From an uncultured bacterium (GTDB lineage Bacteria > Omnitrophota > Omnitrophia > Omnitrophales > Abzuiibacteriaceae), in assembly GCA_964387845.1 (NCBI GenBank), contig CAYLXA010000001.1, forward strand, positions 96,001-160,000: a stretch of 64,000 bases of DNA. Reading direction: 5' to 3'. The translations under genes were made by a program, and so were the position numbers. Shown piece by piece: positions 27,901-30,900 of the stretch (positions are counted from its first letter, which is position 1; every line of letters begins with the position of its first letter). The notes below the pieces were generated by a model. It searched no databases, was not told where the DNA came from, and was given only the letters and a program-made list of their open reading frames with translations.

Positions 27901-30900
27901 AAACGCGCCACCATTCCAAGGTGCCGCTACCAACCGCTCCTTTCCATCTCGAAACTTGTACAGCTTGAAAACAGGTTTTAAATTTGTAAAAACCTGCGGA
28001 ACTAATTTGATGAAATAAGTCGTCAGCAAAGCGGTTTTTGGGCCATGCTCGGCAAACAACCGGTCAATATGGTAAGCATCCGGCCTCCACCCTTGCTCAC
28101 CGGCAAATACTTCGCCGCGCAAAAGGCCGTTTTGAAAACCGATCATTTTGGTGTAACCCATGCCGGCTTCCTGGACCTTAAGAAATTGCCTTGCCTGTAC
28201 GATGGTTTGATCAATTGTTTCCGAAAGTTCAGGATGTTTTTTCTTGGCGCGAATCAAAGAACCGATTGCAGTCATCATGCTCACGGTTAAATTAGCGTTG
28301 TCTACATAAGCGATCAGTGTGCTGTCTGCCTGGACAGCAGGCTCTAGTTTAAACCACGGGATCAGGCCTGTATTTCCCCTGGGAGCCACTTGCCGGCCGA
28401 ATTTTTGCTGATCCTGAAGGAGTTGCTTCAAAAGCCTGTCCAATGTCTCAAGCGCTTCTTTCGCGTGTCCTGCGCTTTCCCGGCCGGGCACATCGCCTGC
28501 GGCTTGATGCGCCAAAATTTCGACCTGAAATCCAATAATGGTCGGCTGCGTCCATTTTCTCGCTTCATTTCCTTTCAATCCGTCATAAGCATAACCGCTT
28601 TTCGGATCAACGCCGACACCGGGCTTCAAATAGCCGAGCATGCGTTCAATTTGTGCTTTCCGGAAAGCGTCGTAATTCAGCTTTTCAGCTTTCGGTTTTT
28701 TAACTTTTTTCTTTTGCGATTTCGAATCTTGCTTAGGGCCTGCGAATACAGAACTTCCCAAGCCTAAAAATGCTGCAACTGCACCCAAAAACCTGCCTGT
28801 AAACTCCCGCCGGCTAAGACCATCTTGCTGCCGAAGCTCCGAGCGCTTTAAAGCGCGGAGCGTGGTTAATGGCCTGATAGATTCGGCCGGTTCATTTTTA
28901 ATCGCAGGTTTGGGTTGTTTTCGATTAGATGCAATCCATGCTTTTACCGCGCTAAAAGCGTAAACAATGGCAAGGCTGCTCGATGCAGTGAGCGCAATCA
29001 TTGAGATAATCATGCGCCGACGCAAATCCTCAGCGCCGATAACATCAGAAATTGATTCGAAGCCTCTGATGCGGGTTATTTCGGTAAATTCGGCTTGCAG
29101 TAATGTAAGCCAGCCGTACGACAGCCCGGCCACCGCCAAGGCAACGCCCATCGCAATTGTGTAAAATTGGGGCGAACGGTCATCAAAAAATCCGCGTAGT
29201 TCGGAACGCGCCGGCCATGGCAAGAGAATGCTGTTTTTTAGATTCGAATTTAACCGAATTTCTGGCTCCGGAAAGTGTATTCGATTCAAACCAAAATCCT
29301 CCGGAACTGCCGTACCATTAAAAGGCACGTCGCGGCGATATGCTTGAGTGGTTATAAACCCATATCCATTCTTGATTTTTTGATATAAGTGGATTTGTAT
29401 TTCGGGCCTTTGATTTGGAAATAAACCATTATCAAATTTGATATACACAATGCGATCACCGTTTGATGTGATGAGCGCGAAATAATCCCTTTCGAGCTGC
29501 TGAAAAGGATTGATTCCGGTTAACCGCGTGAACTCTTCCACCGGCAAATATCTTGGGAGATGCGGATTGTTCAAAGAGCGCGCCCGGCTGTCATCAAGGC
29601 GCTTGTTTTCTACTGCGATACTCCAAGCAGAGCTTTTGAAAAACCTGACAAGCAGCGAGTCAACCGGTTCGGGAAAATCCCCTTGTTCAGCAATTCCGAA
29701 TGGCCCGGACATTTGAAAATTTGTCACCTGCCCGTCTGAATTGGTCTGAAAACTAAAGGGGCCAACTTGAAACCCTCCATTTTCTAAAACTTGAATATTC
29801 CAATAACCGGGCGTAATCCCTCCAAACTCTGTAACAGCATTGACCCAAACATTCATGCCGTTTCGATCCGCAAAATAATGTAATACAAAAAATAGTTTCC
29901 TTAAAAGGAGAGGTTTTCCATTTTGAGCGTTTCGGATGGCCCGTGCGAACAATGTGTCCGGATCTTGAACCCAATACATAAAAGTATCTGAGAAATCTTC
30001 CCTGTAATCGGTCGTTGCGTAATTACTCACAAAGTTGTCACGGTCACCAAGCGATTGCTGATAAAGATTTTCATAATAATTTTTCGCGGCAGATGAAGCA
30101 GCGTTCTGAATGCCGTGCGCCATTTCGTGCATCACAGTCCCCTGTAAATTCAGAGTAACTAATCTTGAGCTGGCAGGTTTGCCTGTTTCTGAAACTCCGT
30201 CATGAACTACAAAGAAACGTTCATTGATGGTTTTTGAACCTGACATGAAAAGTGCCGGCTGGGTAAATAAAATAAACGTGCTCGAATCAAGCGACAAACC
30301 GTTAAGCCCCGGTATCGCCTGCGACGGAACCGTCGCAATCACTTTTAAATCTTTGGTGAGCCTTGCGGGCAAAGCATTTAAATAATGTTCGAGGGAGGCG
30401 CGCTCGCCGGAATTTAACTGATTATAAGGCTGTTCGGGAAACCCTTGATCGGCAATCTTGATTTCGCGGCCATGAACAACGATGGTTGCATAACCCATCG
30501 CCAACCATTCTTTCAGCATTGTTCTTGGATCTTCACGGGTCATCGGAGCAGGCGCCGGAAAGAACATGGCGAAAGGATTGAGCAAATAAAATCCGCATCC
30601 GCTAAGACTGGCGGCGCCAATACTCAGAAGAATGGACACAACTGCACTCGGTATTTTTTTGCCTCGATTTGAGCGCAGCTCGGATCTACTTGATAGAAAA
30701 AGCCGGACCGGTTCTCTATCGGCGTCTTTCGCAAAATCGCCGCGCGGCTCCCGCTCAACATGGATGGTCTCATCCGAAATCACGTAATCTAAATTCACGA
30801 CTCCCAGTTGCGTGCGCAAATATTCAAGCAAGCCAACAGCCCGTGATTTTTCCTTGGGAATCTGCAATGCGCGTTCTTTTGCTGCCAGATCTCGGATCTT

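Follow-up and report, generated by a model that had tools for sequence, protein, structure and literature searches.

A giant open reading frame of an Omnitrophota bacterium as a putative cellular polyprotein, with an RSELR motif at its module borders and export signals inside the chain

The 64,000-nucleotide stretch of an Omnitrophota chromosome analysed here (contig CAYLXA010000001.1; hereafter the window) carries on its minus strand a giant open reading frame (ORF) of 3617 aa, in which a recurrent RSELR motif stands at the borders between modules and hydrophobic export signals directly follow several copies of the motif. We propose, with a probability of roughly 60%, that this ORF encodes a cellular polyprotein, which would be cut at RSE-phi-R (phi being L, I, V, M or A) by an endopeptidase, the pieces being routed by their own Sec, lipoprotein or twin-arginine translocation (Tat) signal. 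Cleavage itself, the site of the cut within the motif, its compartment and the enzyme are what we infer from a pattern that recurs in homologous giant proteins.

Results

A short peptide motif stands at every module border

The giant ORF starts at a TTG codon, which the initial annotation had rendered as an initiator M, and runs across 10.8 kb with no stop codon. It contains 12 [R/K/S]SELR motifs, 10 of them exactly RSELR, ending at aa 99, 223, 424, 803, 1111, 1715, 2208, 2329, 2825, 3172, 3340 and 3612. The motifs are placed at module borders and set off pieces of 99, 124, 201, 379, 308, 604, 493, 121, 496, 347, 168, 272 and 5 aa, which are ordinary protein sizes. The ORF, its motifs and its tail are located as follows:

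24964..35817, minus strand: giant ORF, putative polyprotein of 12 modules and a 5-aa tail; an identical protein (P0001) occurs elsewhere
35521..35535, minus strand: junction motif 1, RSELR, aa 95-99
35149..35163, minus strand: junction motif 2, RSELR, aa 219-223
34546..34560, minus strand: junction motif 3, SSELR, aa 420-424
33409..33423, minus strand: junction motif 4, RSELR, aa 799-803
32485..32499, minus strand: junction motif 5, RSELR, aa 1107-1111
30673..30687, minus strand: junction motif 6, RSELR, end of module 6
29194..29208, minus strand: junction motif 7, end of module 7
28831..28845, minus strand: junction motif 8, end of module 8
27343..27357, minus strand: junction motif 9, RSELR, aa 2821-2825, just beyond the folded core of module 9
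26302..26316, minus strand: junction motif 10, end of module 10
25798..25812, minus strand: junction motif 11, KSELR, aa 3336-3340
24982..24996, minus strand: junction motif 12, RSELR, aa 3608-3612, 5 aa ahead of the stop
24967..24981, minus strand: C-terminal pentapeptide IAQMA, resembling the C-termini of four relatives

Every SELR tetrapeptide found in the six frames of the window lies inside the giant ORF, where 12 copies compare with 0.14 expected from its composition (Poisson P = 1.2e-19), and 2000 shuffles of the ORF yielded a maximum of 3. Likewise, the other ORF-like segments of 27 loci contain 0.015 RSE[LIVMA]R per 1000 aa, about 200 times fewer than the approximately 3 per 1000 aa observed here. 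The codons of the motif vary synonymously (Ser TCN/AGC, Arg CGN/AGA, five Leu codons), indicating that selection acts on the peptide and not on the DNA, and ruling out a DNA-level repeat or recombination site as its origin. A logo of 53 sites from the family of relatives described below shows conservation only in A(-1, 30%)-R-S-E-phi-R, as would be expected of a protease site. Indeed, since the motif is short, strictly conserved, unstructured and present at every module border, it bears what looks like a protease-site signature of the type found in viral polyproteins. The residue following the motif is poor in L/F/W/Y (2/54), but this was not used as evidence, as avoidance under the N-end rule and polar linkers fit it equally.

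Export-type signals directly follow three of the internal motifs

Hydrophobic signals open three pieces of the giant ORF, namely modules 7, 8 and 9. The signals and the modules to which a class could be assigned are:

35734..35817, minus strand: N-terminal Sec-type signal peptide of module 1, aa 1-28, ending ...TVAYG before D; hydrophobic peak at aa 3-27
30673..32484, minus strand: module 6, basic array of helix-turn-helix (HTH)-like repeats, aa 1112-1715, 604 aa, ending in motif 6
30595..30672, minus strand: lipoprotein-type signal, SNRGKKIPSAVVSILLSIGAASLSG followed by C, aa 1716-1741, directly after motif 6
29194..30672, minus strand: module 7, HExxH zinc-hydrolase lipoprotein-like, aa 1716-2208, with HEMAH at aa 1897-1901 (nt 30115-30129)
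28831..29193, minus strand: module 8, small two-helix membrane protein, aa 2209-2329, with helices at aa 2218-2240 and 2269-2292 and a basic tail
28735..28830, minus strand: Tat-like signal QQDGLSRREFTGRFLGAVAAFLGLGSSVFAGP, aa 2330-2361, directly after motif 8 and followed by a Lys-rich stretch
27358..28689, minus strand: folded core of module 9, (alpha/alpha)6 beta-1,2-glucanase-like, aa 2377-2820
26302..27342, minus strand: module 10, calcineurin/PPP-like metallophosphoesterase, aa 2826-3172, ending in motif 10

The initial annotation had reported RSELR sites at 30673, 29194 and 28831 with a lipoprotein signal, a transmembrane segment and a Tat-like signal behind them, and a normal Sec signal peptide at the N-terminus. 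The three sites and the sequences after each are present exactly as it gave them, and the N-terminal signal peptide, the lipoprotein signal, which conforms to the lipobox rule with Cys1741, and the transmembrane segment (FYTIAMGVALAVAGLSYGWLTLL, within the two-helix module 8) were all recovered. As for the third internal signal, the sequence SRREFTGRFLGAVAAFLGLGSSVFAGP is present, extending to nt 28735, and matches a Tat regular expression, but Tat profiles give it no score.

The start of module 7 was compared with a PROSITE PS51257-type lipoprotein pattern, {DERK}(6)-[LIVMFWSTAG](2)-[LIVMFYSTAGCQ]-[AGS]-C, whose sole match in the giant ORF is LSIGAASLSG-C at aa 1731-1741, with an L-S-G-C lipobox and an uncharged h-region. 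Counted from the residue after RSELR, the Cys stands at position 26 (rule 15-35), with R3, K5 and K6 within the first 7 residues; counted in the uncut chain, it is residue 1741, outside the positional rule. On its sequence, the start of module 7 fits the full lipoprotein rule only if the chain begins after RSELR. Moreover, Cys1741 is the only Cys in 3617 aa, whereas other ORFs of the window contain 0.74% Cys (P = 6e-11). As five K/R flank the signal on its N-terminal side and none on its C-terminal side, it is predicted to insert N-in. The module behind it shows a weak match, below the family cut-off, to TIGR04549 ('substrate import-associated zinc metallohydrolase lipoprotein'; E = 2e-5) and a Pfam match to Peptidase_Mx1 (E = 1e-4).

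The criterion applied to Tat signals was an S/T-R-R-x-F-L-K motif followed by a moderately hydrophobic, uncharged h-region. At the start of module 9, S-R-R-E-F-T-G precedes such a region, FLGAVAAFLGLGSSVFAG, and gives a regular-expression match 6 aa past motif 8; the segment is predicted with low confidence (predicted local distance difference test, pLDDT, < 50).

Module 6 matches the Pfam family HTH_11 (29.1 bits vs a cut-off of 25), with weaker matches to Crp, TetR and LacI HTH families, and by these matches would be a cytoplasmic kind of domain. It is built of about eight repeats of 65-70 aa with an HTH-like core, ...IAxxAGVSxxT...R...AVxxFFxxRIxxAI..., an unusual tandem-HTH architecture. 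For modules 2-5, AlphaFold2 run on the single sequence gave no usable fold (mean pLDDT 41.5).

Module 9 has the fold of exported beta-1,2-glucanases

When modelled with AlphaFold2 from an alignment of 40 sequences, module 9 reached a mean pLDDT of 88.8, with a confident core at aa 2377-2820. The signal and the two flanking RSELR motifs fall outside this core, in tails with pLDDT < 50. The best Foldseek match was 8xuj (E = 6e-20; template modelling score 0.69/0.82), accompanied by 6imu and 5gzh, and the predicted fold is the (alpha/alpha)6 barrel of the beta-1,2-glucanase (SGL) clan. At the sequence level, Pfam PF10091 gave only a weak match, on one homologue of the module. Residue E275 of the query segment is invariant in the 40 sequences. 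Beta-1,2-glucanases are secreted or periplasmic enzymes, and beta-1,2-glucans are periplasmic polymers of other Gram-negative bacteria.

Comparison with single-module counterparts had been suggested in the initial annotation as a check, and such proteins do exist: homologues of 435-660 aa align end to end with module 9 and are led by N-terminal Sec-type signal peptides. The window itself encodes a stand-alone 697-aa 'putative glucoamylase' (12611-14704, minus strand) with a PF10091 match (E = 1e-70) and a Sec signal peptide. This protein was considered as a paralogue of module 9 and rejected, the two having no significant sequence similarity (E = 2.2).

Module 10 matches Pfam Metallophos PF00149 well above the cut-off (44.7 bits vs 21.5; E = 2.7e-11), contains GDLHG, GDYLH and GNHD motifs, and finds Ser/Thr phosphatases in a PDB sequence search.

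The junction motif and the signals behind it are conserved in relatives

Relatives were collected by an exhaustive HMMER search with modules 7-9, which returned 208 proteins at E <= 0.001, 150 of them listed. Nearly all of the 150 hit module 9, and most cover its core alone, within proteins of 400-8000 aa. Five proteins among the matches listed share the R-S-E-[L/M/V/I]-R junction design: P0001, identical to the giant ORF product and found in an independent public assembly; P0116 (2686 aa, 8 RSELR); P0002 (2662 aa, 6 junction motifs); P0003 (6013 aa, 11 junction motifs, mostly RSEMR); and P0004 (NCBI MSR76934.1, Candidatus Omnitrophota; 4003 aa, mostly RSEVR). A metagenome scan added a Cys-free ORF of > 7086 aa with RSEVR (L010, 2-21259) and an ORF with RSEAR (L018). 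In addition, a second giant ORF lies ~4.5 kb downstream of P0003 (L005, 22775-28286, plus strand; 3293 aa, with fn3 and F5/F8 type C domains) and carries RSEIR and RSEAR, which suggests that several substrates per genome may share one processing system. No other recurrent tetrapeptide of the RSE-phi-R kind was found in the 30-odd other giant matches.

All-against-all module BLAST of the five relatives showed that they carry differing module sets. The neighbourhoods of four of them contain unrelated housekeeping genes, with no conserved neighbour. The N-termini of P0116, P0002 and P0004 resemble that of the giant ORF, and a signal peptide is present in 4/5 family members. Cytoplasmic-type domains also occur amid the exported modules of relatives, REC in P0002 and DnaJ in P0004. 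Between two motifs, very short modules of 34-57 aa are found in P0002 (566-599), P0003 (5250-5294) and P0004 (1796-1841 and 3678-3734), recalling retroviral Gag with its spacer peptides, or prohormone precursors with their small peptides.

The pairing of motif and signal is itself conserved in homologues. Module 7 is homologous to module 4 of P0116 (E = 3e-19), with an alignment that begins within the signal, and the latter module reads RSELR-SPRFGMPGMLIGFALAGIPG-C, that Cys being the only one in 2686 aa. The initial annotation had made its case depend on conservation of the lipobox Cys and of the RR pair. The Cys is kept in this HExxH module, directly after RSELR and again as the sole Cys of the protein. 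With regard to the RR pair, the four orthologous copies of module 9 align from the motif onward, with RSE-phi-R, R22 and F24 invariant, and RR-x-F is retained in 3/4 of them (P0001, P0002 and P0003), P0004 having SRSFLK. The Tat-like match falls 5-18 aa past the motif in module 9 of P0001, P0002 and P0003, and 11 aa past the motif in a non-orthologous module of P0116; the internal rate of such matches in 145 other proteins is 0.13 per 1000 aa. Tat profiles come near their thresholds on two of the orthologues (P0002, 22.4 vs 22.7 with Pfam TAT_signal; P0004, 15.7 vs 16.7 with TIGR01409) and score 11.4 on P0003.

Genomic context and other features of the window

The window is part of a Gram-negative bacterial chromosome of ~47% G+C, whose genes, according to Pfam and ORF scans, are mostly housekeeping genes on the minus strand. 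The giant ORF is placed between hom and a ferredoxin gene. On one flank there are genes for lipopolysaccharide transport and lipid A, together with uvrB, valS, a leuA-like gene, lysC, apgM, thrC and hom; the other flank holds the small ferredoxin, fumC, a 2-oxoacid:ferredoxin oxidoreductase, a Cus-type RND pump and nrfAH. The nearest genome in a species-level collection is a Candidatus Omnitrophota metagenome-assembled genome with a Hom 57% identical and a matching order hom-thrC-apgM-...-valS; the giant ORF is absent at its corresponding hom locus. Pfam scans of the proteins encoded in the 64 kb window, which lacks lgt and lspA, revealed no tat genes either.

Palindromic intergenic elements built of a 7-nt periodic AAGTGGT/AAGTGGTAAG unit and its complement were found at 18228-18314, 21106-21177, 24863-24950 and 35929-35981 (20 matches to the unit vs 1.9 expected). 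They follow several convergent or tandem genes and occur on both flanks of the giant ORF, and are probably terminator hairpins or a REP-like (repetitive extragenic palindromic) element. They were considered as insertion borders of the giant ORF and discarded in that role, since the same element occurs in other intergenic regions.

The 1920-aa product of an ORF at 48298-54060 (plus strand) has a hydrophobic segment at its N-terminus, a PKD-like domain and eight Flg_new_2 domains, which resemble InlB B-repeats. It has the look of a conventional large surface protein, with no RSE-phi-R and with 8 Cys. At 57634-59437 (minus strand) lies a pair formed by nrfA (cytochrome c552 nitrite reductase) and nrfH (NapC/NirT), and respiratory ammonification of nitrite is therefore predicted for this organism.

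Discussion

A proposed route from one chain to separately targeted proteins

In the scheme that we favour, one chain of 3617 aa would be translated and a dedicated, sequence-specific endopeptidase would cut at or beside each (A)-R-S-E-phi-R junction. The simplest placement of the cut would be on the cytoplasmic side, behind the last Arg of the motif, which would leave the observed n-regions intact; a cut before the Ser would also be workable. Approximately 12 products of 99-604 aa would be released: module 1 would leave through Sec, module 7 would mature as a lipoprotein via the Lgt/LspA pathway, module 8 would insert as a small two-helix membrane protein, and module 9, the beta-1,2-glucanase-fold enzyme, would be exported via Tat. 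The modules with no signal, among them the HTH array and the PPP-type phosphoesterase, would remain cytoplasmic. The tail may serve the precursor as a whole. All five complete motif-bearing proteins end in Ala (IAQMA, FAKSA, TSVAA, ISSAA, TAYSA), compared with 10% of the other 145 matches; because the last RSELR separates IAQMA from module 12, the pentapeptide appears to belong to the precursor as such, in which it may be a recognition or degradation tag.

Two of the traits that define a polyprotein are found here, namely several distinct, independently folding modules and a short consensus at their junctions; the third, a cognate protease, was not found in the giant ORF, the window or the neighbourhoods of relatives. 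This is the first of several points that weigh against the scheme. Within the giant ORF, a catalytic-motif scan, per-module Pfam searches at E <= 5, and NCBIfam and PDB searches detected no protease; the only peptidase-like motif is the HExxH of module 7, which is predicted to be exported, and no serine-protease motif is present. Pfam found no peptidase in the rest of the 64 kb window, none adjoins the relatives in the four neighbourhoods, and the all-against-all module comparison revealed no module common to all relatives that might act as a built-in protease. A protease acting in trans is suggested by the second motif-bearing ORF on the P0003 contig, and the lineage-specific phi (L, M, V or A) would be compatible with a single specificity pocket that co-varies with it. 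The Tat profiles Pfam PF10518 and TIGR01409, moreover, do not match the Tat-like signal of the window itself, and an N-terminal Sec signal on a chain cut in the cytoplasm means that cleavage must be fast, probably co-translational. Finally, the modules of every relative contain 0-0.15% Cys, those taken to be cytoplasmic not excepted (1/3617 aa in the giant ORF, 1/2686 in P0116 and 0/>7086 in L010). In the window, the giant ORF has 0.03% Cys, exported ORFs 0.14-0.4% and ORFs overall 0.74%. Such scarcity hints at a shared extracytoplasmic fate or at some other common constraint, and a polyprotein processed in the cytoplasm leaves it unexplained.

Alternative explanations

The Cys content leads to the main rival: as exported proteins of the same organism are also Cys-poor, the entire chain may be bound for the exterior. 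It would then be exported first, through its N-terminal signal or another secretion system. Cuts at RSE-phi-R would follow in the periplasm, in the extracellular space, or in a prey or host cell, in which last case the internal Sec, lipoprotein and Tat signals would use the export machinery of the recipient. The signal peptides at the N-termini of 4/5 family members agree with this, as do the predatory or host-dependent lifestyle and giant surface proteins proposed for Omnitrophota in the giant-gene preprints, and the fold of module 9, that of enzymes cutting beta-1,2-glucans. Nevertheless, lipoprotein and Tat signals work from the cytoplasmic side and would be useless in the producer once the chain had left it; Sec threading of 3617 aa with four hydrophobic segments would stall at each of them; HTH, REC and DnaJ are cytoplasmic domain types; and Pfam detected no delivery system nearby in the 64 kb window. 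We therefore regard export of the intact chain as unlikely, and its most radical version, delivery of the chain into prey cells whose Sec, Lol and Tat machinery would be hijacked by the internal signals, as very improbable.

The initial annotation had left a choice between separately targeted pieces and a huge polytopic membrane protein; the comparison with relatives supports the former, and the latter fits poorly. An uncut polytopic chain in which RSE-phi-R is a linker, docking or modification site is in line with published topology surveys, which interpret the long proteins of Omnitrophota as one chain each, equipped with a signal peptide and with membrane helices, and the four segments from aa 1722 could indeed alternate, with the Lys-rich stretch after the last facing the cytoplasm. 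However, this alternation would leave the very basic aa 2293-2342, the K/R-rich stretch that leads from the second helix of module 8 to the Tat-like segment, on the outside, and module 9 with its glucanase fold on the inside, in apparent conflict with its signal-bearing homologues. Were the N-terminal signal peptide to lead one uninterrupted chain, moreover, the lipoprotein signal would need an orientation opposite to N-in, and the HTH array, whose 604 aa lie between the two signals, would end up in the periplasm; both would be avoided if the weak amphipathic segment at aa 537-555 crossed the membrane. In P0116, the successive hydrophobic segments of modules 2, 3 and 4 all have positive N-flanks (+4, +4, +1), so that they cannot alternate as helices of one chain, a pattern that would be expected for three independent signals. 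The sole Cys in a perfect lipobox of two homologues and the occurrence of hydrophobic segments after only 4/12 motifs would likewise be left unexplained, and we consider an uncut chain unlikely. A smaller chance still falls to processing by signal peptidases alone, with the internal signals as anchors, LspA and LepB cutting at 2-3 places and the motif unrelated. Precedents are FbcH, the cytochrome b/c1 precursor of Bradyrhizobium japonicum, which is separated into its parts at a signal peptide inside the chain, and the polyproteins of flaviviruses, some of whose cuts are made by the signal peptidase of the host; this route, however, accounts neither for the 8-9 motifs with no nearby signal nor for a strict 5-residue motif at every border and again 5 aa from the C-terminus. 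Hardly credible, lastly, is that the ORF is a fused operon translated from several starts within it, or that it stems from faulty assembly or annotation. The modules are gene-sized, functionally unrelated and operon-like, but the 10.8 kb contain no stop codon, the identical protein occurs in an independent assembly, and the motif is conserved at the peptide level. Starts at the motif itself, conceivable because L, M, V and I at phi are start-codon amino acids, were discarded, as the Leu codons include CTT, CTA and CTC and relatives use Ala. The first in-frame ATG/GTG/TTG lie 12 and 15 codons beyond the junction, past the basic n-region and the RR pair, and thus internal initiation cannot make the signals.

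Significance for Omnitrophota giant genes

Cutting a polyprotein at a short fixed motif is a viral hallmark, and to our knowledge cellular bacteria have only a few two- or three-part precursors and toxins of this kind. The gene described here is chromosomal and appears to encode about 12 unrelated proteins with different destinations, with lipoprotein and Tat signals lying as deep as 2,300 residues inside the chain. No fewer than five to seven giant ORFs of the Omnitrophota type share its design. Whether the scheme extends to the phylum, with Omnitrophota expressing operon-sized sets of unrelated cellular proteins as virus-like polyproteins cut by a dedicated protease at a lineage-tuned R-S-E-phi-R code, seems to us about evenly balanced.

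The closest published context is that of the Omnitrophota giant genes, which belong to the same phylum and encode very long, Cys-poor, multi-domain proteins with a signal peptide and membrane helices (10.1101/2023.11.21.568195; 10.64898/2026.06.07.730766). The giants of West-Roberts et al. reach tens of thousands of aa and carry C39/S8 peptidase and SecA-like domains, through the first two of which post-translational cleavage was speculated to occur (10.1101/2023.11.21.568195). Pfam found none of these domains in the 3617-aa ORF, and the ORFs of the present family differ from the giant proteins of the 'Archaeovorin' and Dockerin types in their length of 2.6-7 kaa and in their explicit junction motif. 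Cleavage of giant proteins is treated as an open question, and the lack of known cleavage points as a hindrance to their analysis (10.1101/2023.11.21.568195; 10.64898/2026.06.07.730766). Internal signal-peptide calls were discarded as artefacts in one of these studies (10.64898/2026.06.07.730766), and the words 'polyprotein', 'lipoprotein' and 'twin-arginine' appear in neither preprint (10.1101/2023.11.21.568195; 10.64898/2026.06.07.730766). A search of the available literature on bacterial polyproteins with internal signals and on Omnitrophota cleavage sites yielded nothing relevant beyond these two giant-gene preprints, and no prior description of the RSELR motif. RSE-phi-R would thus provide the first candidate cleavage sites for giant genes of Omnitrophota. 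It predicts exact product borders, a protease traceable by phylogenetic profiling and a lipidated Cys1741, and, if the scheme is true, it would let Omnitrophota giant genes be split into their real products. It would also be a warning that standard annotation, in which one ORF is one protein and signals are N-terminal only, misdescribes such genes.

Comparison with known multi-protein precursors

Among bacterial systems, MARTX toxins are similar in being giant multi-module proteins with a short site between modules, cleavage being putative in the present case. Unlike it, they are cut after Leu inside the eukaryotic host by a built-in C80 Cys protease and have no internal bacterial export signals; the giant ORF has no Pfam match to a C80 cysteine protease domain or to RTX-type repeats, and only one Cys. 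The gingipain/adhesin polyproteins of Porphyromonas (RgpA, Kgp, HagA) are likewise bacterial precursors, cut after Arg or Lys into domains, but they are exported whole and processed outside by gingipains, their pieces stay in one complex, and they have neither internal signals nor a fixed 5-residue motif. In the two-protein FbcH precursor, an internal signal peptide targets the downstream half, signal peptidase splits the chain and both products join one complex; in contrast to these two products with no junction motif, there are here ~12 modules with one. The giant ORF is not a member of the MARTX, gingipain or FbcH-type precursors, the defining domains that were looked for being absent.

The likeness to viral polyproteins is more extensive. 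As in flaviviruses and potyviruses, with their NS2B-NS3 or NIa-Pro sites, one long ORF carries a short conserved consensus, here a candidate cleavage site, at every junction, and the flaviviral arrangement, in which internal signal sequences directly after protease sites send the next pieces across the membrane, is the one proposed here. The differences are that this is a chromosomal gene of a cellular bacterium with housekeeping neighbours and no recognised protease module, that its signals are of the bacterial lipoprotein and Tat types, and that R-S-E-phi-R is not known as a viral protease site. By analogy, the giant ORF would work most like a flavivirus polyprotein, with its protease sites and internal signal sequences, or like a potyvirus polyprotein.

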